A program made the position numbers and the translations under genes. DNA of 64,000 nt from Squalus acanthias (Eukaryota), in the NCBI GenBank assembly GCA_030390025.1, contig CM059432.1, positions 70,434,001 through 70,498,000 of the forward strand, given 5' to 3'. The notes under the pieces were generated by a model that saw nothing but the letters and a program-made list of their open reading frames with translations, was not told the origin of the DNA and searched no databases. Of this stretch, positions 3,943 to 64,000 are shown in pieces; positions within the stretch are counted from its first letter, which is position 1, and each line of letters starts with the position of its first letter.

Positions 3943-4313
3943 GTAAGGACCATTCTCTTATCATTTACATCATAAGTTTGTATGAGAGAAGTTTTGCAGG
4001 TATTAACATATTTTTCAATTCCCAAAATAAATTTATTATATGCCTATCCATCCAGAATATTTGGGCTGTAGTGAAAGATCATGGACAACTTTGAGGGATC
4101 TTTTAGTATCAGGCATTTTTCTAAACAGTGGTCTGATAAACAAAAGCAAAATTATTTATTTAATAGTTAAAATTATAAAATGAATCTACTCCTTTAATAA
4201 CTTTATACACAAAATATAGAACATTAAAGTTCAAAACTAAGTCATAGGCTTTATTTACATTAACTGCACTTAATTGAGATGAACGAACATTTTGTAACCT
4301 TTTCTTTTCCAAG

Positions 4314-5121
4314 ACGAGCACGGTTTCAAAGAAAAGATTCAAAAAGAAAAAAGTGACTTACAAATACATTGAAGATCTGCCTGAAGATTGTAATGAATGC
4401 CCAGGCGAGATTTTAAATGTTCTTTCTGGTGTCACTGACTTGAGGTTGACCGAAGAGCAAACAGATTTTGAAGTAGAGCGTAATGGCCGTCATCATTCGT
4501 GTGAAGGAGCAGCAGGCTCTGAGCTAGATTCCAAAACGGACTGGGAAAAATATTGGAATCAGTATGGTGAGGGTCTTATTTGGGAAAATTGGTTGGACAA
4601 ACATCCTGAATGGTCAGAAGATGCACCTGCTCCATGGAACTGTCCTGACACTAAAGATCAGTGGCAACAATTTTACACTGAACAGTATTGGCTATATTAT
4701 GAGCAGTTTCAGTACTGGGTAGCTCAAGGATGGTCTGTGGACTGTACTAAAGTCAGTGATCTTGGGAAGGATTCATCTTGTGCAAATGCACATGAATCAG
4801 AATTTTTCAGTAACACTGAAAACAATGCTGGTGAAAACTTCAGGACTGTGCTGCCAACAGAATCAGTCATTGCATCAAATGGAGAAAGTACTGCCGAATG
4901 TAATGAAGTTAGTTATGGAGAGGTTGTCAATATGATCAATAACATAAGACTCAATTCAGGAAATGAAACTGAGGAATCAACGGGTGTGCAAAGCAGTATC
5001 TGCCAGAGTCCTGCTGATGCTGCAAGTTCTTGTGAGTGTGGTTCTGATGAGAGAGAACCATGTGATGGAGGCAACAGCAAAAGATGTGCATCCAGTGGAA
5101 GAGTCTCCACAGTTCAGTCAG
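4314..5121 (+). CDS. TGS1: TGS1 large coding exon (probable exon 4): WEKYWNQYGEGLIWENW...WQQFYTEQYWLYYEQFQYW
   Basis: Pyrimidine tract plus aag acceptor, G|gttggt donor; open frame (ORF 4353-5165) with the Trp/Tyr-rich PIMT N-terminal region. Confidence 0.93.
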
Positions 5122-5135
5122 GTTGGTATTGCCAC

Positions 5136-5202
5136 GATTTCCTCACTATACTCCAGTGGGTGTGATTAGATTTTCTCACTATACTCCAGTGGGTGTGATT
5201 AG
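5136..5202. repeat. 33-bp tandem duplication just after the exon-4 donor
   Basis: Two near-identical copies of gatttYctcactatactccagtgggtgtgatta. Confidence 0.85.
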
Positions 5203-5607
5203 TTGATTTAGAACTAGTTCTGTTTGTGTGGGTAGATTGACGCTGGACGTGTTAAGTTTAGAATCACCCATCTTCTGTTGCAGTGGTCAAAACCGGTTTT
5301 CTTTTTCTTCCTGGATGCCTTTGTGTTAACAGAACTTAAGATGGTATTCAACTGTTTGTGTTAGAATAGTTGAGCCTTCAGTTGCACTGAAGGCAGGTGA
5401 GAGATTTTTTTCATATACTTTCATCCTTAAACAATGTTATTTCTGGTTTTAGAGCTGGGTTCAGATTTTTGCACTTTAACTGCAACAATCAACATTAGTC
5501 CAGACATGAAGTTGTAGATTACATCTAAATGACATCAGTACTTTTATGTTTTTTTTACCTATACTTGTGTAAATACTCTAACTTGAGCCAGTCATTGTCC
5601 ACATTAA

Positions 5608-5842
5608 TACAATAGCAAAATACTGCGGATGCTGGAAATCTGAAATAACAACAGAAAATGCTGGAAACACTCAGCAGGTCAGGCAGCATCGAGGAGAGAG
5701 AAACCGAGTTAACGTTTCGGGTTGAGGACCCTTCGTCAGAACTGTTCTGACGAAGGGTCCTCAACCTGAAACGTTAACTCTGTTTCTCTCTCCTCGATGC
5801 TGCCTGACCTGCTGAGTGTTTCCAGCATTTTCTGTTGTTATT
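5608..5842. mobile_element. Penelope-type terminal-repeat fragment forming a palindrome with two hammerhead motifs
   Basis: 99-bp inverted arms 5644-5742 and 5744-5842; flanking direct repeat ATTGTCCACATTAA (5594-5607, 5840-5853); same family as the 62-kb array. Confidence 0.85.
5744..5778 (+). ncRNA. Minimal type I hammerhead ribozyme motif (mirror copy on - strand at 5708-5742)
   Basis: GUU-CUGACGA-[stem II]-GAA-ACGU-U-AAC with a palindromic helix III segment. Confidence 0.78.
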
Positions 5843-6793
5843 GTCCACATTAAATTGTGCTAAACTTACTACTTTCATAAATAAAGTCACCGTGATGCAT
5901 TGATGTGCAGCTGTGTATAGTATCTCATTCTCACCATCTGTCCTGCAATATCTGCTGTACATTGTGTAATTTCTGCTGTGGAACTCTTTCTTTTAGCAAA
6001 CAAAATAGTCAGGTTTTGATTTGGCTATCGAGGTTCAAATGAGATATCCAGCCAACTTTGTTTCTATAAGAAATACAAATCCCGCACAACCAATTTGTGT
6101 GTCTTGATTTTCTTTATGAAACATGGAGAGACCAAGTAAATCCTTACTTTGTAAACTGCAGCTCTTTATCTAAGCTTGTTTTAATAGCTTTTCCTGACTA
6201 GCATTTTGCTTAAGGTAATGGTATCAGAATCACTGTGTGCCTCAGTTTACCCAGACTTGTTTAAAGACTATTGGGTTATGTCATACAGTTTTTGTTTTTA
6301 GGAAAATAGACTTTCTAAATGCAAAAGAGACAAAAATAAATGTGCATTTTCACAAAGATCCGATAAACTTATTTTATTGGAAAATCCTTGGATGGCTCCT
6401 AGGTTAGAAGCTGTTCTAGTTGCTTTGTAGGGATTTTGTTTTGTCTTCTTACCCCCAACATCTGCAACTTATTACATCTCTGTTTTGCTCGCTTTTTTCT
6501 ATTAGGATCATGTGAAAGGTAGGATGAAGTGTGCTGCTGAGTTAAATACAGATTAAAAAGGCATTTGCACACAATGATTGAGGGGAATAGCAGGCATGTT
6601 TCTGGTCATGATTAGATTCAAAGATTAACAAGTTCCAAAAAGCTTAAGTTGTAGTCTAGAATCATTTCAAGTTATGTAGGTTGGACTTGTATCACCAGGA
6701 GAGTAGCTAGTGGATGCTGTACATATGAATGGCAAAAACCCTGAAAGATATTTAAAATGGTTCATCCTAATAATTTGTGGTTTACTGTGCCAG

Positions 6794-11184: not shown

Positions 11185-11850
11185 AGGCTCTCACCCCTAC
11201 CCTTTCCCTCCTTCCCATAACCACGTTAGGGTTCCCCTTGTCCTCGCCTTAACCCACCAGCCTCCTCATTCAACAGATCATCATCCGCCATTTCCGCTAC
11301 CTCCAGCGTGATGCCACCACCAAACACATCTTCCCTTCCCCTTTCAGCATTCCGAAGGGACCATTCCCTCCGTGACACTCTGGTCCACTCTTCCAACACT
11401 CCCTCCCCTTCCCACAGCACCTTCCTGTATAAGCATAGGAGATGCAACACCTGCCCTTTTACCTCCCTCCTCCCTTCCCACCGTCCAGGGTCCCAAACAC
11501 TCCTACCAGGTGAAACAGCAATTTACTTGTACTTTCAATTTAGTATACTGTATTCGCTGCTCACGATGTGGTCTCCTCTACATTGGGGAGACCAAACGTA
11601 GATTGGGTGATCACTTTGTGGAACACCTCCGTTCAGTCCGCAAGTGTAATCCTGAGCATCCGGTCACCTGTCATTTTAATTCTCCACCCCACTCCCACTC
11701 TGACCTCTCTGTACTTGGCCTCCTACACTGTTCTAATGATGCTTAACGGAAGCGCGAGGAACAGAACCTCATCTTTTGATTAGGCGCTTTACAGCCTTCC
11801 GGACTCAACATTGAGTTCAACAATTTCAGATCATAACCACTCCACTGCTC
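11185..11850 (+). mobile_element. Penelope-like element 3' fragment (GIY-YIG endonuclease, frameshifted)
   Basis: FTCTFNLVYCIRCSRCGLLYIGETKRRLGDHFVEHLRSV...HFN; downstream QPSGLNIEF in another frame. Confidence 0.88.
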
Positions 11851-11991
11851 CCATTTTTTTTGCAGATAGCAGTTGTTAATTGGAAGTGCAAAAAATTTTA
11901 AGACGACTGCAGTGCTCTCCCCCCTGCTTCCCCCAAAGAAGAATTGCTAATCTTAGATGCCTTTGTGTTTTTCTCTAATCTTCGTGTGCAG

Positions 11992-12151: not shown

Positions 12152-12623
12152 GTAATGAAAATTATACATCATGGGGCTGGGTGATGCAATGGGTCAGCCC
12201 GGACTGATGGGTTGAACCCACTTCCTAATGCAATTATGGGCTAGAACCAACATTCATGGCCCCAGTCATGCTTTCTCGTTGTTGAGAGTGATCAAGTAGA
12301 GGCTTGGCATATTGACCAAAGCTCACTGACCTTTGCATATTTTCCTTTTATCTTCATTTAAATATCTCGCTGTCTCATTTTTAAAATAAGCTGAAACAAA
12401 ACCAAATGTATCTTTTATATGTATTAAACTGGTGATAAGGGATTAATTACAGATATTTTTGGGGTTCTTTATGCACATATTGATGTATCATACAAAGGCA
12501 CACTAGCTCCAAACCAGCTTCAGATACACCACGGTCATCTGTTATTCTTTAGCACTCTCAGCACAGTAAAAGTAACTGGCATTGTTGGAGTTGATTGATC
12601 ATTGCTTGTTTTAATGATTTCAG

Positions 12624-13011
12624 GTGCAAAGATTTCTAAAACAAGCTGTGCCTTCAAATGACTCTGTTAACACAGAGGCTCCGCCCTGTGTGGCACATAG
12701 CTCTGAGGAATGCACCAGCTCTGAGCAGCACCACAGTTCGAATGCAGAGTGCTCCATTCTATATGAAAATAGCAACAGTGGAAATGGAGAGGAAAGAACT
12801 TGTGCTGATGGAGAATTCCCAGCTTGTGTCAGCGTCCCCTCCAAATTGAATATCTGCACTGAAGGCAACAATGAGCAACTTCCCAAAATGCATGATGTGG
12901 CCCCTACTCCTGCCGAAAGCTGTGAATTGTATTCTGACCGACAGCTGGTTCCTCTGGATATTCCAGACTTTCTTCTTCCTGATGCTGATGTAACTGAGAG
13001 GGGTGATGAAT
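12624..13011 (+). CDS. TGS1: TGS1 coding exon (probable exon 8): VQRFLKQ...RQLVPLDIPDFLLPD
   Basis: tttcag acceptor. Two in-phase candidate donors (after 13002 gtgatg, or after 13011 gtatgt). Contains the RQLxxLDIPDxL motif. Confidence 0.86.
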
Positions 13012-13902
13012 GTATGTATCAAACTGAAGGGTGGACCCAAGGCACACAAACTTTTTTTGTTGAGTCACAGATTCAAACCACATTCTCAGGTTTTCACAGA
13101 ATAGTTTTCCATTTTGTAAAAGAAAACACCTACTGCACAGTAAAATGATCACTGCTGACTCCAAGTATTCTTTTCAATATTAACTCATCTTAATCCATTG
13201 TCTAGTATGTTCTCACATTTGGTAGAAATGCGTGTTTACCTGCTTTATATTATATTTGATATAAAGTGTTCTAACTAGTACTGTAATAAGTTTATACTAA
13301 AGAACATTTGAGCCCGAGTTCAAAAAGTAACCTTTGCCAATTTAAAAAATGTTTCCCTGTTCCATTTTTCTTTCTCCTTTATGCCCCCCCCCCCCCGCAC
13401 ACACACACTTGCTATTTACGAATCCCTGAGCAAGAAGGCAGAGAGTTGAACTTCTGCAAAACCTCTGTTAGCATTGCTCTGTAACTGATCTGTTTGGTGC
13501 GTCTAAGAGCAGCTTGGGTGAAATGCCTAATGCCCCCTCTGCCCCTTTTAGGAGTTTTCTGGTTTCTGCTGGATACTTCCCTTTGGTGGCCTAAATCAGG
13601 AACTCTTGTTGCTGTTTACCTGCAAAATGACTGCTGTGTTTGCTGACATAGCAACTGTTGCTCTACCTCAGAGTAATTCATTATATGTGCACAGGAGTCC
13701 AGAGTCAAAGCACTTTGATATATTCCTGAGAGACATAAACCAATATATAAAAGTCTTTAGCTAACTAGGAAAATCACTGGTGAAAATTTATGTTTTGCTG
13801 TAGAACACAGCACATTTGTACACAAACCAATGTGGCATTCTTTTAGCTGAAAAATACTTATTTTTGATAAATAAGTATTAACATATTGCAGCTCTTTTGC
13901 AG

Positions 13903-41229: not shown

Positions 41230-42130
41230 ATTACCTTTTGAATTGCTTATACAGCTGCATCCTGCTTGCTCAGCAATAACTGCAGACATTTGTGAACAAT
41301 GCAGAAAACATGGTGCATTCTTGAATCACTGACGGTTCATGTTATTCCCGGACACCTAATCTGGATGTTGCCAAAAGTCAAGAATCCCAGGTTTGAGACA
41401 ATATTTGCAGTTTTATTTGTTTTATTTTTAAGTGTTCTGGCACAAACCACACCCTTTCCAAATAGGCCACTGTAGTGCATTGTTAGAATCATAGAATTAA
41501 ACAGCACAGATGGAGGCCATTTGGCCCATCATGCCTGTACCAGCTCTTTGAAAGGGCTATCCAATCAGTCTCACTCCCCTGCTCTTTCCCCATAGCCCTG
41601 CACATTTTTCCTCTTCAAGTATTTATCCAGTTCCCTTTTTAAAAAAATTTATTGAATCTGCTTCCACCACCCTTTCAGGCAGAGTATTCCAGATCACAGC
41701 AATTCACTGCGTATTTTTTTCCCTCATGTCACTTGTAGTTCTTTTGCCAATTATAAATCTGTATCCTCTTGTTACCGACCCTTCTGCTACTGGAAACAGT
41801 GCTTCCTTACTCTAACCCCTTCATGATTTTGAATACCTCTAATCAAATCTCCCCTTAACCTTCTCTACTCTAAGGCGAACAAATCCAGTTTCTCCAGTCT
41901 CTCCATGTAACTGAAATCCCTCATCCCTGGTATCATTCTAGTAAATCTCCTCTGCACCCGCTCTAAGGCCTTGACATCCTTCCTAAAGTGTGGTGCCCAG
42001 AATTGGCTACAATACTGAGGCCTAATCGGTGTTTTAGCATAACTTCCTTGGCTTTTGTATTCTATGCCTCTATTTATAAAATTGAGAGGTCGCACAACAC
42101 CAGGTTACAGTCCAACAGTTTTATTTGAAA

Positions 42131-42168
42131 TCACAAGCTTTCGGAACTATCGCTCCTTCCTCAGGTGA
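42131..42168 (-). ncRNA. Minimal type I hammerhead ribozyme in the Penelope 3' region
   Basis: UCAC-CUGAGGA-A-GGAGC-GAUA-GUUCC-GAA-AGCU-U-GUGA. Confidence 0.8.
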
Positions 42169-42510
42169 AGTAAATTGGATACAGAATCGTCAGAGCATAT
42201 ATAGATGGAAAAAAAAGCATGTGTACTTTACAATTGCAGACCAATAAATTAAATCATCCTGACTATCTGCCGAGGTGTGATAAAGTTAATTAAGTCAGCC
42301 AGGAAGGTACCACATCAAAAGACATAGCAAGATACAACTGAGACAATGAGGTGAAGTCGCAGGGGTTCTAACGTGTCAAAAGCTGCCGTCTGTATGTAAA
42401 ACGAAAAGCTTTAAAAAAATAAAAAAAAATTTACTTTTTTACTGGGAAAATTTTTACTTTTTTACTGGGAATCACATCTGTGAACAAGCTAACGACGACT
42501 CGAGTCCGGA

Positions 42511-44469
42511 TCACGTCATGTATCGTGACATAAACCCAAGATCCCGATTGAGACCGTCTTCATGAGTGCAGAACTTGGCTATCAGTTTCTGCTCGATGAT
42601 TTTGCGTTGTCGTGTGTTTCTAAGGTTGCCTTGGAGAACGCTTACCCGCAGATCCGAGGCTGAATGTCCTTGACTGCTGAAGTGTTCCCCGACTGGGAGG
42701 TAACAATCCTGCCTGGCGATTGTTGCGCGGTGCTCGTTCATACGTTGTCTCAGTGTCTGCATGGTCTCGCCGATGTACCATGCCGCGGTGCATTCTTTCC
42801 TGCAACGTATGAGGTAGACAACGTTGGCCGAGTCACATGAGTATGTACCATGTACCTGGTGGGTAGTGTCCTCACGTGTGATGGTGGTATCTGTGTTGAT
42901 GATCTGGCATGTCTTGCAGAGTTTGCCATGGCAGGGTTGTGTGGTGTCGTGGTCGCTGTTATCCTGAAAGCTGGGTAATTTGCTGCGAACGATGGTACTT
43001 CTGAGGTTAGGCGGCTGTTTGAAGGCAAGTAGTGGAGGCGTGGGGATGGCCTTAGCGAGGTGTTTGTCGTCATCGATGACATGTTGAAGGCTGCGAAGAA
43101 CATGTCGTAGTTTCTCCGCTCCGGGGAAGTACTGGACGACGTAGGGTACCCTGTTGGTTGTGTCCCGTGTTTGCCTTCTGAGGAGGTCTATGCGATTTTT
43201 CGCTGTGGCCCGTCGGAACTGTCGATCGATGAGTCGAGCGTCATATCCCGTTCTTACGAGGGCGTTTTTCAGCGTCCGTAGGTGTCCATCGCGTTCCTCC
43301 TCGTCTGAGCAGATCCTGTGTATTCGCAGGGCTTGTCCATAGGGGATGGCTTCTTTAACATGGTTAGGGTGGAAGCTGGAGAAGTGGAGCATCGTGAGGT
43401 TGTCCGTGGGCTTGCGGTAGAGTGAAGTGCTGAGGTGTCCGTCTTTGATGGAGATTCGTGTGTCCAGGAATGAGACCGATTCTGAGGAGTAGTCCATGGT
43501 GAGTTTGATGGTGGGATGGAACTTGTTTATGTTATCGTGTAGTCTTTTCAGTGATCCTTCGCCATGGGTCCAAAGGAAGAAAATGTCGTCGATGTATCTG
43601 GTGTACAGCGTTGGCTGGAGGTCCTGTGCAGCGAAGAAGTCTTGCTCGAACTTGTGCATGAAGATGTTGGCGTATTGGGGTGCGAATTTGGTCCCCATGG
43701 CTGTTCCGTGTGTTTGGGTAAAAAAATGGTTGTCGAAGGTGAAGACATTGTGGTCAAGGATGAAGCGGATGAGTTGTAGGATGGCGTCTGGAGATTGGCT
43801 GTTGTTGATGTTGAGTACTGAGGCTGTTGCAGCGATGCCGTCATCGTGGGGGATACTGGTGTAGAGTGCCGATACGTCCATCGTGGCAAGGAGTGTTCCT
43901 GGTTCAACTGGTCCGTGGGTGCTGAGTTTCTGTAAGAAGTCTGTAGTGTCGCGACAGAAGCTGGGGGTTCCCTGTACGATGGGTTTCAGAATGCCCTCGA
44001 CGTATCCAGAGAGGTTCTCACACAGGGTTCCATTGCCTGATACGATAGGACGTCCGGGTGTGTTGGCTTTGTGTATCTTTGGGAGGCAGTAGAAGTCTCC
44101 CACGCGGGGAGTACGTGGGATGAGAGCGCGTAGGATGTTTTGAAGGTCTGGATCGAAGGTCTTGATCAGTCTATTGAGTTGGCGGGTGTGTTCTTTGGTC
44201 GGATCTGCGGGTAGCTGTCTGTAGTGTTCCTGGTTGTCCAGTTGTCGGTATGCTTCTTTACAATAGTCCGTTCTGTTCTGTATGACGATGGCTCCTCCTT
44301 TGTCCGCTGGTTTGATGACAATGTTGCGGTTGGTCTTGAGAGCGTGGATGGCGTTGCGTTGTGCTCGGGTGACATTCTGGACTGTCTTGTGAGTGCGGCT
44401 GATGAATCTGGCGTTGATGCATTTCCTGACAGCTTGAGCATACATGTCAAGCTTGGGGCAGCGACCCAT
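42511..44469 (-). CDS. Penelope-like reverse transcriptase + GIY-YIG endonuclease (652 aa, N-terminally truncated)
   Basis: IKPADKGG, LPKIHK, GRPIVS, MDVSALYTSI, GTAMG, RYIDD; VVYLIRC..WYIGET..RMNEH..E..GLN; no stops. Confidence 0.93.
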   Translation of the reverse strand: MGRCPKLDMYAQAVRKCINARFISRTHKTVQNVTRAQRNAIHALKTNRNIVIKPADKGGAIVIQNRTDYCKEAYRQLDNQEHYRQLPADPTKEHTRQLNRLIKTFDPDLQNILRALIPRTPRVGDFYCLPKIHKANTPGRPIVSGNGTLCENLSGYVEGILKPIVQGTPSFCRDTTDFLQKLSTHGPVEPGTLLATMDVSALYTSIPHDDGIAATASVLNINNSQSPDAILQLIRFILDHNVFTFDNHFFTQTHGTAMGTKFAPQYANIFMHKFEQDFFAAQDLQPTLYTRYIDDIFFLWTHGEGSLKRLHDNINKFHPTIKLTMDYSSESVSFLDTRISIKDGHLSTSLYRKPTDNLTMLHFSSFHPNHVKEAIPYGQALRIHRICSDEEERDGHLRTLKNALVRTGYDARLIDRQFRRATAKNRIDLLRRQTRDTTNRVPYVVQYFPGAEKLRHVLRSLQHVIDDDKHLAKAIPTPPLLAFKQPPNLRSTIVRSKLPSFQDNSDHDTTQPCHGKLCKTCQIINTDTTITREDTTHQVHGTYSCDSANVVYLIRCRKECTAAWYIGETMQTLRQRMNEHRATIARQDCYLPVGEHFSSQGHSASDLRVSVLQGNLRNTRQRKIIEQKLIAKFCTHEDGLNRDLGFMSRYMT

Positions 44470-55188: not shown

Positions 55189-56864
55189 ATAGCCTGTGTG
55201 CGACATAAATATAATTTGAATATCAAAGTCACCTTTACAGAGTTCAATTCTACTTCATGGACCAACATTGTACGTGCCAAGCTTTTTTTGTCCTTGATGG
55301 TTTAAATTCACTTACTAAAGCAGTGAAATTAGCTTCAGAAGCAAACTAAATGATGTACTGATCTAATTTTGGTCTATTATTTTGATTGGATGTGTGCTTG
55401 ACAAACTTAACCACTGGATCGATCCCATGTCCATCACTGAGAAACCAGTTAGTGGAATTAGATGTCATCAATCGGGGTGACCGTGGGAGCAGTACAATTG
55501 GTCGCAACATCACTAGGCTGGAGTGGGGAGATACATCAACTGGGATTGATTTCTCGGGTTTTCATTTCTGACTGCTGTACAGTTCCTGCTGGAAAGTGAA
55601 CTTGTGGATGTTGCTTGGTGTCTTTGCTCACACATGAAGAATGGCCTCTTAATATGGTACTCGAAGGCAGCAGGTGCCTGTGGAACCACACTACAGAACA
55701 AGCCAGTACCTTAAGTAAAGGAGAAAATTAAAATGTGGGAAAAGAAACTGTTAGTGTTGCAATTTTCAGGCCCACACCTAAGAATACAGACATATGCAAT
55801 CTGCAAGTTAAGTTTATAATGTATTATGCCCACCACTATTCTTAGTCAGTTCAGCTGGTAGCATTAAGAATTATGTCTCCTGTGTAGGTGTCTCAAGCTT
55901 AACACACAAACAATGTGATGGCTGGTGCATCTATTTGATGTCATTCTTACCAAGGTCTTCTGTTTGTATCTTTTGCATTTAGAACACCTCAACCGGGTGC
56001 ACCATTGTCTTCTTAGTTACCTCAGCTGGTTGCAACACAGACTCGTGTCTCCTGTCTTTCATTTGATGTCATTTTTACGAAGGCATATGTTTCTTTAATT
56101 TTCTGTGCTTCATTTGAAAGTGTTGGTTTAAGACACCTTAACAGGGTATATCATTGTGTTCTTTCCAATGCTTCAGACTTTCAGGAACCTCCAACCTCCT
56201 GTTTCAATAAGGTTATTGATTCCGTGTCAACAACTTATCTTATCTCAATAGCCTGCATGCTGTTTACAGCTTCTCCATTGTTAGGTTTTTAGATTTTCAA
56301 ACCCAGTTTGTCATGTTTTAATAAAGTCAAAATTATTTCATAGGATGGTGTATTTTTCTGAATAGGTATATTGCTTATTCCTTCACAAACATACATTGCC
56401 CCCTGCCCCAGTTTGACATTAAATACTGTGTTTCCTTTTTTTAATTTTCTTATGCAGTCCCATGTTTGACCTTGGATTCTTGTGAATTTTAATTTAATTC
56501 AAAGGGGGAGAAATTCGGTATCGCCCCATTTGGGGCGCAATTATCGGCCGGGCGCAAAGTTTAGCGCCTGGTGCTAATTATCGCCTCTGACTGCAAACTT
56601 GGCTTTTATCGCCCCTGGAGGTGATTGGAGCACTAAATCAGGTGCTACACATCTCTCTTAAGGCGCAAAGGCTGAGAAGCGAGGCACTAGCTCAGAGCGC
56701 GGGCAAAGCTCAGGTGGTGTCGGTTAGCAATGGAACACAGACACACTGGCGCCGGCCAGTTCTTAAAGGGGAGGGTCGATCTTGCTCTCCAGCCACACCC
56801 TGCTCATTGCAGGCTTGAATCTCGTCGTAGACAGACCTGTGCCTGAAATCTTCAGCTAAGGATT

Positions 56865-58629
56865 ATGGAGAGGGTCAGGGAACGAGCTCAGCACTTCAGC
56901 GACTGGGCCTTGGAGGCTCTGGTTGGCGCAGTGGAGCGCCGAAGAGCAATACTGTACCCTGAGAATGGCAGGAGGCCATTGCCGTGCGACTACAGAAGAG
57001 TGTGGAGGGAGGTGGCTCAGCGCGTCTCCTCCAGGAGCATGGTGCCCAGGACCCATACGCAATGTCGCAAAAAGTTCAACGACCTCACTCGGGTCGTCGG
57101 GGTGAGTGGCTGTTTTTCAATACCTCTCCATTCCTCCACCTCAACCTCACTCTATGGCCAGAGGGTCTTAAAACCCCAATGCCCAACACTCATCCAAGAC
57201 CTATGGTCATCTCATAAAACACACGCGCACATTCCACACCTTGCATACATTAAGGGCTATTCAACTATGGGAGGCACATCAGGCAAGACCATGGCTGCAT
57301 ATTTACTCAGACGCTGTCCTTTTTCTTGCAGGCCAAGCTATCTCATAATAGGCGGCAGCAGCAACGGATGGGTGGAGGGCCGCCTCAGCTGCAACCCCTC
57401 AGCGATCTTGAGGCACGCGTCCACAGGATTGTGGCAAGCCAGGTGATCGGTCCCATCGCTCCTGAAGAGGCTGACCCTGTTCGGGACAGCAATGGTAAGG
57501 TCATCAGCTTTCTCTCCTCTCTCACTCCACTTATCCCTCACAACACAAGCCGTTTACACTTTCAATCCAACTTACTAAATTGCTCCAGTCCTTGCTCCCT
57601 TACTGCCGCCCTGTCTTCACGCTAAAGCCACTCTTGTACCTCCCTGCTTTCAGATGGTGATTCACCAGCTGAGGAGACGGGCCCTCAACCAGCCAGTGGG
57701 AGCGAAGCCGCAGGCGAGGAGGAAGAGGAAGCCGGAGCCTCAGCACCAGCATCTCCCGAGGAAGCCCATGCACACACAGGGACCACGTCTTCCCTGGAGG
57801 GGAGCAGGGGGAAGGGTCTGATGAGGGTGAAGCTCCGGGACCCAGCAGGCTGCAGCAACGTGATGGGGGTAGGGAAGCTCGGGGGCCTTCTCCCCAGAGG
57901 GAGAGCAGGCCAGCGAGTCCTGCTGCACTGGATGCAGAGGAGGAGCGGCTCATCGCTGAAATGAACACCCAGGCGGTGGACATGCACACTCAGCTCATGG
58001 GTGCAGTGGGAAGGGTGCCCGAAAGCATTGATGGACTGGCAAGGAGTGTGGAGCACTACGCTGCAGCACAGGCGGGCGCCACGCAAATGCTTAGTGCTGC
58101 AATTCAGTCACTGGCTGCTGTGATCCAATCTCAGACTGGTTTCATGCAGACTCAAATTGAGGCCACGCAAGCACTGACTGCTGCCATTGTTGCTGGTTCG
58201 GACACATTTCACCGGGGCTCTCACTGCGCCTCAGCAGGCCAGCAATCTGTGCTCCAGCAGATTGCTCCGGATGCTGATGTGCTGCCCTGTGGGAGTGCCA
58301 GTGTGTCGGTCGAGCAGGGAGTTGCTGTCCTCTCTCAAGATGACAGCATTCCTGCTGCCACCACTGTCACTTCCTCATTGCACTTGCCACCGCCTGTAGC
58401 CCAGACTGCTGCTGCCCATGCAGAGTTGGTGCAGTCTGCAGCTGGGCCCTCCAGGCCCAGAGCTGGTCGAGGGCATCCTTCAAGGGTATCTGTAGTCTCA
58501 GGATCTGGCATTCAGCAGCCTTCTGCCAGCCTTGCTGCAGCCACTGGGGCCCCATTACAGAGGAGCAGTAGGGTGGGAAGGGGGGAAGTGCGCCAGGGAA
58601 GATCATCACCTTCGAAGGGCAAAAAGTAG
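56865..58629 (+). pseudogene. Harbinger Myb/SANT-like DNA-binding protein gene, 3 exons (56865-57101, 57332-57494, 57654-58629), frameshift in exon 3
   Basis: FSDWALEALVGAV..WREVAQRV..RTHTQCRKKFNDL; GT-AG junctions in phase; the exon-3 entry frame differs from the ORF 57961-58629 frame. Confidence 0.8.
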
Positions 58630-58958: not shown

Positions 58959-61456
58959 TTAACGGACGGCCCTTGCAGTTTCAACATTGTGGGCCTCCCT
59001 CCCGCCTTGGTGCTGCTGCTGATCATCCTCTTCCTCCTCCTCTTCCTCCGGTGGTGCACCAAGGCCTGGTGGCATTGGCTGGGTCCTGAGGATTGCAAGG
59101 TTATGAAGAATGCAGCAAACAACTATGAAGAGGGAGACTCGCTCAGGCGAGTACTGCAGGGCTCCTCCTGAGTGGTCCAGACAGTGGAACCGTTGCTTGA
59201 GCACACCGATCGTCTGCTCAATGATGTTCCTGGTGGCAAGATGGCTCTCATTGTACCACAGCTCAGCAGGGGTGTTGGGGTTACAGAGCGGTGTCATCAG
59301 CCAGGTGCAGAGTGAATAACCCTTGTCTCCGAGGAGCCAATCACTTGGCTGATGCGCTGCCTGGAAAAGTTCTGGCACACCAGTCTGGCACAGGATGAAA
59401 ACATTGTGGGTGCTGCCAGGATAGCGGGCATTGACAGCGAGTATCAGCTGTCTGTGGTCACAGACTAACTGGACATTTAAGGAGTGGAACCCCTTGCGGT
59501 TTCGGAAAAGTGTAAGGTTTCCAAAATTTGAAGATCCCCAAAACCTAAGGAAAAAGGACTTTGGAACTACCTCAGAGTGATAAAAATGCATTTGGGCCTA
59601 ACATAAGGAATTTAAGACCAAAAACCAAGTTTTGGCATTTTTAAAACTATATCTGGGCCTGTAAAGGAACAAAAGGTGGGAACAACCTCTGTAAAAGCAG
59701 TTTTTGGATATTGCAGTTAATTGCAATGTCTGGGGAACCGGGATGACCTCACTCAAAGCCCCAGCAAGCATTAACATTTTGACAATAGACCCTAGGCGAA
59801 GACAGTCCCACCCAAAACAACAGGTCCCATCAAAACCGTTTACAGAACCCATTAAAGACATGCATAAAGCAAATATTCTATAGAAGTCCTAGGCCCAGTC
59901 AAGAAACCCAAAACATGAGGACAATTCAAACCCCGATTAAACAACAGATCGACAGGATGGAGCTATCCTGAAACCACTTCACACATTTACAAAACCAGTT
60001 AACACGCTAGTAAAGTCGTTACTGTTAACGAGGCCTCAAATTGAAAGGCTGTTTTCTCAAGAAGGCCCATCAAGCAGTTCAGCAGTTACAACAGAAGGCA
60101 GTTCTGCAGTTTCGAGTTCAATTTTAAAAGCCTGTTTTCAGCAGAAGTCAGTGCTGGAGTTAGAGTTCAGGAGAAGCAAGTTGGGCAGTTAAAGAATACA
60201 GTTCCGTAAGAAGGGAGTTCTCCAGCACAACAGTTCAAGTTCGAGTTCTCCAGTAGAGTTACACAGAAACAAATTCAACAAGAAAGCAACAAGCAGGACA
60301 GCAGCAGCAAGGAGTTCAACAGCAGTTCTGCAGAAGGCAGTTCCACAGTTCTGCAAGAAGGCAATTCCACAGCTCGGAAGAAGACAGTTTAAACAGAGGC
60401 AGAGTTCAACAAAGAAGGCCAACAGCTCCAGAAGCAGGCCGACACGCAAGAAGAAACCAGAGCAACAGTTCCAGTGACCATCAGACACCTCGCGGCAACA
60501 AGGGCCTTACGAAACCTTTTACGCAGAAGACTCTAAACCCTAACTCTCAACTGTCAAGGATTCGTTTGGTGAGCATTATCCCTGGTTCTCCAGAGCCCAA
60601 CCTAGCTAGTGAAGTGGGATTGGGAGGGGTGAAGTATTCTCCTAATGTTATTTCCCTCGCTTGTACCGAAGTGTTCCCCACTTTTAGAGTGTTAAGAGTG
60701 TTTGTGTTGTGTTTTTACTTTCTTGAATAAAGATTGAAGTTCTTTCATCAAACTCAGTTGTCTGCTGCACCTTTGTATCACAACCCCCAAATAAGTCCAA
60801 GGTCTAGAACCAAGGGAGTGGGAGCGATTTGAACCGCTCAGAAGTCAGAGGTAAAGCTGACACAAAACCACCACCCCCTACAAAAGCTCTGCATTCTCAT
60901 GCGGTGCCCGCAATGCCACATGCGTGCAGTCAATGGCGCCCTGCATCATGGGGAAGCCCACTATCCTCGCAAAGCCCAATGCGCATTCATGCTGTTTGGC
61001 CCGGGTCATCGGGAAAGAGATGTACTGGCGTCTCCTTTTATAGAGGGCATTTGTGACCTCCCGGATACAGCAATGGACCGCAAACTGGGAGATATTGGCG
61101 ATGTCCTCAGTAGCTGCTTGAAAGGAGCCGGTGGCATAAAAATTCAGAGCCACTGTCACCTTCACTGCCACCGACAGAGACGTCCTGGTCCTCAGTTGAG
61201 GCTGCAGATCTGGTTGTAGCAGGTGGTAGAGCTCAGTGACCACCTCCTTGCTGAAGCGCAGCCTGCGCAAACACTGCTTCTCAGACAAATGAATGTAGGA
61301 GAATTGTTCCCAGAATACCCTGGGAGGGTAAGGCCTCCTATGCAGAGGCCTGTTGGTACTCCTCCCTCTGGCCATGGTTGCCACTCTCTCTCTGCGTCTC
61401 TGATGCCTCCGATTCTGCAGGTGCAGGACGACGGCCCGAATCAGTGCAGCCCCCAT
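58959..61456 (-). pseudogene. Harbinger (HARBI1-like DDE) transposase split by a solo LTR
   Basis: RRLRFSKE, VAVKVTVALNFYATGSFQ, GAIDCTH | RNRKGFHSLNVQLVCD, LLGDKGY, IIEQTIGVLKQRF, CCILHNLA. Removing 59507-60882 gives a 373-aa open frame. Confidence 0.9.
59511..60882 (+). mobile_element. Solo LTR (Gypsy or ERV type)
   Basis: Begins TGTA and ends TACA; 4-bp TSD AAAG (59507-59510, 60883-60886); AATAAA at 60726-60731; no coding region. Confidence 0.87.
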
Positions 61457-62244
61457 TGTCTCTTGACAATCGAAGTAATGAAGGTCAAATCCAAAAGAAC
61501 CTGCAAAGTGATGCTCAGTAGCCAAAACTACTTCACACAGCATTAATTCTCTGCAGAGGTCTCTCTCTGTCAGAATGAGTGGTGCAAAAATGTCTCCCAC
61601 AAAAAAAGGCAGGAAGAGGGCACCTTTAAATAGCGCTCCCCCAGCCCCTTGCCGACTGCAAAATGTTCCAGTCTCCCTGTCGTTGCTGGCGGAAAGGAAG
61701 GGGGCGCCACCGGGGCGTTGCACAGGCAACTGACATCACGATCTGCGGGCGCAGGAGATCGGGGTGGTAGAGTTTAGCGCCGTTGCAAAAACTCGTCAAT
61801 TTCGTGAGTGGCGCAAACATCACCGCGCCCGGGCGCTAGTTGCATTGCGCCCTCTTAGGGCGCTAACAGGAGGCACTAAGCAACCAAATTTTTCCCCCTA
61901 ATTATTTGTTGAGCTTCCTGAAAGTTTAAATATAGCACATCATCAGGAGTGCCACTACCTATTTTAAGCATAACAATTTCAAAGAGGTCAGAGATTGGTC
62001 AGGCAATATCTTCCCTTTCTAAATGCGTTCGATACTAAGACATTGTTACGTAGCTACTCCTCCAGCCTGCTCTTAAAATAGATCCCATTCTGGCACCTGT
62101 TATGGTTAGGCTATAATTACCTAGATCAAATTTGTTCTCTTTTTCCCCCTGTTTCCGGTCCTGCAGAGCCACATCAGTGTTCAGCAGTTCTTCCATGACC
62201 ATAGCCAGTGCCCCATTAAATCTATTTGATTTCCGGCTCTTCCC

Positions 62245-62281
62245 AGTTCTGATGAAAGGTCATCGACCTGAAACGTTAACT
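62245..62281 (+). ncRNA. Minimal type I hammerhead ribozyme, copy 1
   Basis: AGUU-CUGAUGA-A-AGGUC-AUC-GACCU-GAA-ACGU-U-AACU. Confidence 0.82.
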
Positions 62282-62582
62282 CTCTTTCTCTCTCCACGGA
62301 TGCTGCCTGGCCTGCTGAGTTTTTCCAGCGTTTTCTGTTGTTATTTCGGATTTCCAGCATCCGCAGTATTTTGCTATCGTATTAATGTTTGGTTCACTGC
62401 CACCTCTCTTCTTGGAATGCCTACCTTGAAGAAGTTCTGCTCTTCTCTTCGACGGGATTTCCGTTTGGCTCTTCTCTTAATATCTCTTAATGTCTCTTCA
62501 TCTCCACCTTTGTTCCTTCATCCCCTCCCCCTTTTTCCAGCTTTACGCTGGCCTTAAATCTATTTGATTTCCGGCTCTTCCC

Positions 62583-62619
62583 AGTTCTGATGAAAGGTCA
62601 TCGACCTGAAACGTTAACT
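62583..62619 (+). ncRNA. Minimal type I hammerhead ribozyme, copy 2
   Basis: Identical to copy 1. Confidence 0.82.
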
Positions 62620-62920
62620 CTCTTTCTCTCTCCACGGATGCTGCCTGGCCTGCTGAGTTTTTCCAGCGTTTTCTGTTGTTATTTCGGATTTCCAGCATCT
62701 GCAGTATTTTGCTATCGTATTAGTGTTTGGTTCACTGCCACCTCTCTTCTTGGAATGCCTACCTTGAAGAAGTTCTGCTCTTCTCTTCGACGGGATTTCC
62801 GTTTGGCTCTTCTCTTAATGTCTTTTAATGTCTCTTCATCTCCACCTTTGTTCCTTCATCCCCTCCCCCTTTTCCCAGCTTTACCCTGGCCTTAAATCTA
62901 TTTGATTTCCGGCTCTTCCC

Positions 62921-62957
62921 AGTTCTGATGAAAGGTCATCGACCTGAAACGTTAACT
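62921..62957 (+). ncRNA. Minimal type I hammerhead ribozyme, copy 3
   Basis: Identical to copy 1. Confidence 0.82.
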
Positions 62958-64000
62958 CTCTTTCTCTCTCCACGGATGCTGCCTGGCCTGCTGAGTTTTT
63001 CCAGCGTTTTCTGTTGTTATTCCCCATTACTTTCTGCTTGGTTTCCTTTAGCACCCTAGATGCATACCATCTCAACCAGGTATCTGCCATTACTATGGAG
63101 AGCTTTTCGCAAAACAGTTAAGACTCTTTGACAGTTGGTCATGAAGCAAAACTCCACCGTGCATAGTGCAAGGATATAATTAAGTGAATTTCATAGAACT
63201 AACACTATTTCTGAGAGGAAGATTTCAAGTGTTAATATTGATCTGATGTGCATAGAATATAATCTGAACAAAGCCTTTGTTTTTTCATTAGACAATAAGA
63301 ATTTTAAACAGTGTCCATCCCAGTGAATGGCCAAATGTTTTAATTACACACAAGCCTTTATACATAGCCCAGACCTTTTCTTTGGTGTGACTGCAAGTTT
63401 TAGCTCTTCCTGGGATGGAAGAGATGCAAATCCAGACACAGCCATGGAAGAAGGGAACAATTATCAATAACACAACTGCTAAATTGTCCTTTTTAATGGT
63501 AACACATCCTCTTCCAACTGCAGTATAGGAAACACCTGTATGAGCATTATTAGATTTACAATTTATTGGGAGGGTATCTACCAGCATTTTGATTTTGTTT
63601 TTGATTATGTCTGTGAAACACCTTGGGAGGTTTTTCTATGTTAAAGTGCTATATAAATGCAAGTAGTTTTTAAACACTTTTATATCCAATGTACATGCTG
63701 TGCATTTCCAAAGCTGCTGTTAAGGTTCAAAACGATATTATATTACTATTTACCATTTTGAAGAGTGTTCCTCCTAAACAGCTCCTAAATCAGTTTATAT
63801 TAAGCAACAGGCGATACTCAGTTTGGTTAGTCTGATCTCAAAGTTGATTGTTTTCATGTAACAGGAGCTACTACAGAAGATATATGTTCTTTCAAGGATA
63901 GACAATTCCTACCAGCCTACACAGCAAGTTTTAACTGTCTTTAAAGATTGTGAGGGGCTCAGGTGGATAGCCCCCAAAACGGGCGAGGGGATCGCGATGT

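Follow-up and report, generated by a model that had tools for sequence, protein, structure and literature searches.

A hammerhead-bearing tandem array in Squalus acanthias, probably derived from a deleted Penelope-like element

Does a short tandem repeat that carries a hammerhead ribozyme motif in each unit have to be read as a retrozyme that multiplies through circular RNA, or may it have been copied in another way? We addressed this question for an array at positions 62219-63021 of a 64,000-nucleotide stretch of the Squalus acanthias genome (assembly GCA_030390025.1, contig CM059432.1, positions 70,434,001 to 70,498,000 of the forward strand; hereafter the window, to which all coordinates refer), which an initial annotation had described as a retrozyme-like array of three units. 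Our computational analysis suggests that the array most probably represents 2.4 head-to-tail copies of a deleted, non-autonomous Penelope-like element (PLE), copied by the enzyme of its parent element from a linear multimer, with the hammerheads as passengers. This reading is favoured by a fixed 3' end at 63021, found in two sets of aligned contigs (X1 and X10) as well as in the plus arm of an independent insertion at 5.6 kb, and by a tail of ~36 nt that matches the 30-40 bp tails of PLEs (PMC8557442, PMC3846280). It is further favoured by the two-part unit, by a minimal motif of the type found in PLE pseudo-long terminal repeats (pLTRs), by a heterogeneous template, and by the reverse transcriptase (RT) and GIY-YIG-type PLE sequences that lie within the same window.

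Array architecture and hammerhead motifs

Tandem Repeats Finder (TRF) assigns the array a period of 338 and 2.4 copies; its 803 bp divide into 338 + 338 + 127 nt, and the 338-nt unit has a GC content of 45%. Six of the 338 positions (144, 167, 264, 268, 318 and 329) distinguish unit 1 from unit 2, each of them past unit position 127, and positions 1-127 are identical across all three copies. The near-identical 338-bp units of the initial annotation were found again, although the array extends over 2.4 units and not three. An 8-bp target site duplication (TSD), CCCCATTA, adjoins both array ends (62211-62218 and 63022-63029; rough chance 0.002), the final 3 nt of its left copy also fit the unit as a microhomology, and TRF places the array start at 62216. 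The single TSD around the whole array and the arrival as one insertion, both proposed before, are supported for this single array. The features are as follows.

62211-62218, no strand assigned: left TSD, 8 bp, last 3 nt common with the unit (flank comparison and TRF start at 62216)
62219-62556, plus strand: unit 1, 338 nt, 5'-truncated 26 nt upstream of helix I (TRF and alignment)
62557-62894, plus strand: unit 2, 338 nt, six substitutions relative to unit 1 (unit alignment)
62895-63021, plus strand: partial unit 3, 127 nt, stopping at the standard 3' boundary of the family (229 X1 contigs end at 63021)
63022-63029, no strand assigned: right TSD (the match of X1 record 8 starts exactly at 63022)
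62245-62281, plus strand: motif 1, a minimal type I hammerhead with its predicted cut after U17 (62277; pattern and fold)
62583-62619, plus strand: minimal hammerhead motif 2, predicted cut after 62615 (pattern and fold)
62921-62957, plus strand: minimal hammerhead motif 3, predicted cut after 62953 (pattern and fold)

The hammerhead cores start at 62249, 62587 and 62925 and keep the exact 338-nt spacing first reported for them. The core pattern matches five times in the window, three times in the array and twice at 5.7 kb, against a mean of 0.00 over 100 shuffles. Each array motif is composed of helix I (AGUU/AACU), CUGAUGA, one bulged A, helix II of 5 bp closed by a 3-nt loop, GAA, the palindromic ACGU and U17; the intact CUGAUGA/GAAA core, the 5-bp helix II, the helix I strands and the palindrome that had been pointed out are seen in every one of them. 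The 37-nt motif has a minimum free energy (MFE) of -7.3 kcal/mol in a fold that differs from the active one, and the distal duplex beyond helix I is weak (-6.9 kcal/mol). Helix III is absent from the monomer motif and loop 2 has only 3 nt, which places it outside the strict canonical type I definition, where a hammerhead has its own helix III and contacts between loop 1 and loop 2 (PMC7229834). An Rfam scan of 61000-64000 returned 0 matches at E<=1.

With the hammerheads of metazoan PLE pLTRs (described in Cervera and De la Pena 2014, PMC4209133), the array motifs share the lack of helix III, the palindromic positions 15-16, the bulge before helix II and a short helix I, and their earlier assignment to this minimal type stands. 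Reviews likewise place minimal hammerheads with PLEs and canonical ones with retrozymes (PMC7761336, PMC6155905). The pair 10.1-11.1 is A-U in the array, whereas it is a highly conserved G-C in the published minimal motifs, which lie ~3 kb and not 338 nt apart. Those pLTR hammerheads occur mostly as dispersed single copies and show low in vitro activity, only as dimers (PMC4209133); shark and skate terms found no match in the searchable supplements of that paper, one file excepted.

Family ends, tail and the putative parent element

Where family copies begin and end was read from X1, a set of DNA contigs of which 32,088 aligned to a single unit with its right flank (62684-63220, likeness 85), and from X10, with 1,942 contigs taken as RNA by guess and one depth of exactly 1000 that is possibly a ceiling. 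Summed contig depths in both sets are not copy numbers, and only the shape of the profile was used; individual contig pieces are the 16 listed of 34,600 and loose-end rows the 12 listed of 448.

At 63021, 229 X1 contigs and 26 X10 contigs exit, which identifies the 3' end of the array as the standard end of the family and not as the ribozyme cut. X1 contigs enter at 62919 (411), 62921 (175), 62922 (244) and 62923 (161) with heterogeneous flanks, and these entries together with the exits at 63021 point to a solo repeat of ~100 nt as the dominant form of the family. None of the listed loose-end rows falls on the predicted cut at 62953, and one row of 53 lies at 62959. The self-processing into 338-nt circles that had been suggested is thus not borne out: in the rows listed, copies end at the 3' boundary of the pLTR or begin immediately 5' of helix I, and not where the ribozyme would cut. 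Family copies often start at the 5' strand of helix I (62919-62923 and the unit equivalents), after a pyrimidine tract ending in CAG; the intron of D. virilis Penelope ends at the position corresponding to the helix I start (PMC4209133), and the clustered 5' ends at 62919-62923 could stem from a splice acceptor or a transcription start.

A second insertion of the family lies at the other end of the window.

5594-5853, no strand assigned: second insertion of the same pLTR family, a head-to-head pair with a tail on one arm (90% identical to the array repeat)

The plus arm of this pair stops at the array's end base (unit position 127), the minus arm extends to position 163-170, and the two flanks of the pair share a 14-nt word, with microhomology on either side. 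PLE tails measure 30-40 bp, and PLE insertions that combine an inverted, 5'-truncated copy with a tail on one side have been described (PMC8557442, PMC3846280). Several marks of insertion by endonuclease-bearing (EN+) PLEs were found, namely the pLTR minimal hammerhead, the fixed 3' end with an optional tail, the partial tandem or inverted layout, 5' truncation and a TSD. The two arms at 5594-5853 carry two minimal hammerheads, which differ at few positions including G-C versus G-U at 10.1-11.1.

Within the unit, summed X1 depth reaches 3.2-6.9 million from the hammerhead to the 3' end, 1.2-1.3 million over the tail and 125-190 thousand over the start of the short frame, with a minimum of 52 thousand at 62792-62809; the flank has 14.5. 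The tail edge appears as a drop from 1.33 to 0.18 million between bins 62702-62719 and 62720-62737, the ~36-nt tail being covered about one quarter as deeply as the hammerhead part. Across 62810-62881 depth climbs from 289 thousand to 1.38 million, a rise towards the 3' end as seen with 5' truncation, and X1 records 2 and 3 exit the unit at 62812 to continue into other sequence. The depth minimum and the contigs exiting at 62812 suggest that 5' and 3' parts of a longer element were joined at ~62812/62813 (~62474 in unit 1), a joint that we infer to be a deletion breakpoint. No contig piece bridging it is among the 16 of 34,600 listed, which neither proves nor excludes other copies. The unit can accordingly be divided into the following parts, over which the longest frame extends.

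62684-62720, plus strand: optional PLE tail extension, ~36 nt; in unit 1, 62346-62382 (X1 depth drop; on one arm only of the 5.6-kb insertion)
62721-62812, plus strand: 5' internal segment with the short-frame ATG at 62755; in unit 1, 62383-62474 with the ATG at 62417 (records 2 and 3 exit at 62812)
62813-62918, plus strand: segment upstream of the hammerhead, putative 3' untranslated region of the parent; in unit 1, 62475-62580 (X1 depth rise)
62252-62557, plus strand: 101-codon frame with its ATG inside the hammerhead core, running through MPTLKK to a stop at 62555-62557 (open reading frame list; no Pfam match)

Judged from its sequence, the unit is likely an internally deleted PLE made up of a hammerhead pLTR, the ~36-nt tail, a putative open reading frame (ORF) start and pre-hammerhead sequence, where 62721-62812 would be the putative start of the parent ORF with ~19 codons retained. 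The same 8-mer occurs at 62805-62812, next to the presumed breakpoint, and at 62911-62918, just before helix I. One X1 and one X10 contig have a joint from 62811 to 62919, the intervening letters being unseen, and hint at shorter deletion derivatives. At 62298-62363 and the unit equivalents, the family 3' end is enclosed by a multiloop with an 8-bp closing stem (MFE of the region -21.7 kcal/mol, given without a shuffle control); this modelled structure is a candidate for the site where the RT starts.

The frame beginning with MPTLKK (ATG 62417) is real and forms the end portion of a frame that is open over 62117-62557. The ATG at 62252 is not conserved, being ACG in both 5.7-kb arms and in about half of the X1 depth at 62929. 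It was considered as a start of the kind known from PAc, a Poseidon-type PLE of Anolis carolinensis (Frangieh et al. 2024, PMC11167929), and dropped, as the PAc start follows G8 and many copies of the family read ACG here. The 46-aa and 101-aa frames, searched against proteins, gave 0 matches among 28 and 26 candidates, respectively; a search of 1.84 billion proteins with the unit frames found only two short proteins, both matching the pLTR part alone, and an Atlas search with the unit frame had a top score of 0.78 and no RT link. There is no sequence overlap between the unit and the 652-aa RT frame or the GIY-YIG-like fragment of the window (see below), so the parent element is deduced and not identified. 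The short frame, earlier proposed as the start of the parent's ORF, is a probable remnant of the parent's 5' part, as contigs exit at 62812, ~19 codons in; its tie to an RT was not found.

Linear or circular template

In the scenario that we favour, a deletion would first have joined the initial ~19 codons of the parent short frame to the pre-hammerhead region, as depth and contig ends suggest. A tandem locus of the short unit may then have arisen, with units that diverged. A read-through transcript of this locus would keep the PLE cis-signals and be bound in trans by an RT/GIY-YIG protein, by analogy with PAc (PMC11167929), and reverse transcription would start at the fixed internal site 63021, where the end is observed and the enzyme presumed. 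Copying would cover 2.4 units and stop at 62219 on the 3-nt microhomology, leaving the observed 8-bp TSD, with an old long interspersed nuclear element (LINE) remnant as the target of this single copying event. The RT of PAc starts at two internal sites that define its tail, hammerhead mutants of PAc insert normally, and cleavage is seen only with protein (PMC11167929). As the Anolis element inserts without cleavage and its RT starts internally, the hammerheads of the array are read as probable passengers; the architecture is similar, and the same chemistry may apply here. The action of a Penelope RT in trans on the unit, which the initial annotation had put forward, is supported in this way, by inference.

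What the template looked like can be approached through the age of the insertion. X1 record 8 (993 nt, depth 14.5) matches 63022-63220 at 199/199 positions from its letter 342 onwards, and the 341 letters that precede this match do not run on into the array. In the simplest reading this contig likely represents an empty allele without the array, and the insertion, as far as one contig tells, is probably young or dimorphic. If differences arose after insertion and uniformly, the chance that six of them avoid the triplicated 127 nt is ~0.02, and the combined chance including the unchanged flank is ~0.002 if record 8 is the empty allele. The units therefore probably differed in the template already, which is easier to reconcile with read-through of an older tandem locus than with one circle being copied repeatedly or with local duplication.

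Local duplication would have occurred if a deleted copy of 1.4 units had been inserted once and gained a further unit by unequal crossing-over between pLTRs, leaving this as the sole locus. We regard such a one-off as improbable: it should yield identical units that mutate evenly, whereas none of the six differences falls within the triplicated part and the flank has 0/199. In its favour, depth is lowest at 62812 with no bridging piece among the 16 listed, local amplification of PLE ends has been proposed in a preprint on retrozymes (Li, Clavereau, Pollet, bioRxiv 10.64898/2026.07.22.740005), and none of the indexed public runs has the whole unit. A one-unit query of such runs found partial content in 20/22 rows from 13 studies, with a best share of 0.57 of 28 words; at least half of the unit words are held by five rows, all of organism A and from two studies, and organisms B-G reach 0.39-0.46. 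In raw-read runs, 9 reads (X21) and 0 reads (X22) fall on the unit plus right flank. X1, X10, X21 and X22 are the four runs of the 22 that were aligned; X19 and X20, with shares of 0.18 and 0.14, are left out of the results. A scan of viral sequences gave 0 matches, and metagenome matches to an 18-nt word (99 loci) were set aside as chance, none of the 8 blastn matches at E<=1e-3 being longer than 22 nt. A multi-locus spread of the 338-nt unit is not shown by these shares, and the candidate retrozyme family of the initial annotation does not emerge from them.

A working non-LTR retrozyme, in which double-hammerhead self-cleavage releases 338-nt circles and a PLE RT copies a circle 2.4 times, would explain the more-than-unit copy. 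Unit size, 45% GC, a TSD >4 bp and a complete motif per unit agree with described retrozymes (PMC7229834), no core base is altered, the ACGU palindrome is kept, and a nested double-hammerhead pairing is geometrically possible. The array also falls under the operational definition of the preprint (TRF tandem, two or more complete motifs in succession, canonical or minimal, with a motif MFE < -5 kcal/mol) with its 2.4 copies, three motifs and -7.3 kcal/mol, as judged without the authors' rnabob descriptor (bioRxiv 10.64898/2026.07.22.740005). We nevertheless hold it to be unlikely. The retrozymes known to form circular RNA (circRNA) have canonical type I hammerheads, the minimal ones being assigned to PLEs, and A10.1-U11.1 stands in place of G-C. 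The circular monomer is 49% paired at -61.2 kcal/mol (z -1.5, or -1.3 at a second cut position, against 60 shuffles and without a positive control), and folding as a double hammerhead costs 14.7-16.4 kcal/mol relative to the MFE, a weak point, since core geometry, Mg2+ and protein do not enter the model. The units differ at six sites, no indexed run holds >0.57 of the 28 unit words, and 1/9 predicted Xenopus dimers was cleaved (bioRxiv 10.64898/2026.07.22.740005). In X10, the putative RNA, the inner short-frame part has 0.4% of the hammerhead depth versus 3.2% in X1 DNA, and the upstream part 3.1% versus 24%, so that the inner unit is ~8-fold scarcer when scaled to the hammerhead part; with abundant unit-length RNA the X10 profile would be flatter, poly(A) selection or an individual lacking the array would hide such RNA, and contigs cannot reveal circles. 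The circle mode envisaged at first is thus not supported by the monomer, which is not unusually self-paired, or by the scarcity of the inner unit in the putative RNA of X10, and the diverged units argue against one-circle copying. It is similarly doubtful that the deletion-shrunk PLE is a newborn circRNA-forming retrozyme of a young, dimorphic family, whose paired minimal hammerheads act as a dimer, perhaps aided by protein. On the features tested, the array is a retrozyme by the loose sequence definition and not by the strict one.

Several points weigh against copying from a linear multimer. Divergence between unit and flank alone is not significant (Fisher P 0.06), gene conversion from the abundant family copies could produce uneven differences too, and the C/T difference at unit position 144 is frequent among family copies in X1. 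The first 341 letters of record 8 are unseen, so its status as an empty allele is deduced, and a source array of the unit was not found. An internally primed circular template would yield the same 3' end. The protein and Atlas searches with the unit frames produced no tie to an RT/GIY-YIG ORF, and 0/12 relatives of the window's GIY-YIG fragment match the unit.

Genomic surroundings and known systems

The target of the insertion is visible on both sides of the array.

61880-62210, minus strand: decayed remnant of a LINE RT in the left flank (tblastn E 1e-4 to 3e-3 with RT fragments of the window, Pfam RVT_1)
63030-63200, minus strand: probable continuation of this remnant, right flank (7-aa match, E 0.48, collinear; weak)

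Of the insertion into an old CR1 that had been described, the LINE host is weakly shown by these matches (E 1e-4 to 3e-3 on the left, 0.48 on the right). CR1 is an assumed clade name that no search supports. Further PLE sequences occur in the window. A 652-aa stop-free, PLE-like RT frame at 42511-44469 (minus strand; Pfam RVT_1, E 9e-9) has a GIY-YIG-like end by eye and is followed by a different hammerhead-like motif at 42164; the region 42080-44469 (minus) seems to represent a second PLE family that entered a LINE. At 11230-11856 (plus) lies a decayed GIY-YIG-type PLE-like 3' end (Pfam E 0.009, below cut-off) that stops before any hammerhead, and its relatives are predicted proteins of chondrichthyans, the 7/12 that name a species being all from sharks, skates or rays. 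Long exon-like frames are found at 4278-5165 and 12618-13148 (plus), the first with a weak Atlas lead to trimethylguanosine synthase (score 0.76). Frames between 56847 and 61900 (58959-59597 and 60878-61735 minus, 56847-57446 plus) we take to resemble a Harbinger-type transposase and a Myb/SANT-like partner; a Pfam scan of one of them gave no match.

Among known systems, PAc shares with the array a hammerhead followed by two fixed ends split by a tail, tandem organisation, and insertion ends away from the ribozyme cut; it differs in being autonomous and in its ORF start at stem II after G8, as compared with an unconserved ATG in the core (PMC11167929). The retrozymes known from coral, mussel and axolotl (Cervera and De la Pena 2020, PMC7229834) have units of 150-450 bp, GC <50%, TSDs >4 bp and a hammerhead per unit, as the array does, and in addition canonical type I hammerheads, abundant and highly self-paired circRNAs and thousands of copies, none of which is found or shown for the array. 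PLE derivatives of Chlamys such as MRC1 (Craig et al. 2021, PMC8557442) are likewise non-autonomous, with pLTRs and multicopy head-to-tail insertions; their clade and host differ from those of the array, and the MRC1 clade is described as lacking canonical hammerheads.

The closest comparison is offered by the preprint of Li, Clavereau and Pollet (bioRxiv 10.64898/2026.07.22.740005), whose retrozymes are tandem units that each contain a canonical or minimal type I hammerhead, as in the array. It reports pLTR-derived chondrichthyan retrozymes with a mean consensus of 363 bp from one sampled species, and most of its families have <=7 units. Compared with its main text, the array differs in the tail, the short-frame start and the upstream region that were apparently joined by deletion, in the mapped TSD and in the likely empty allele. 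The array fits this loose definition of a retrozyme, and chondrichthyan arrays of this type have been reported already. A literature search, mostly at title level, found no published description of this shark unit. The array does not define a new kind of system.

If the reading as a deleted PLE copied from a linear multimer holds, the locus would be a clean and probably young case of a PLE shrinking into a hammerhead tandem repeat; if the newborn retrozyme were true instead, it would be a minimal-hammerhead circRNA retrozyme with its parent and deletion breakpoint still readable. The 803-bp array with its cis-signals is a handy natural substrate for two questions, namely if minimal hammerheads are able to cleave in dimeric form and if insertion is affected by cleavage. 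Some vertebrate 'retrozymes' defined by sequence may be deleted PLEs that moved as linear multimers, and the label need not imply circular RNA.

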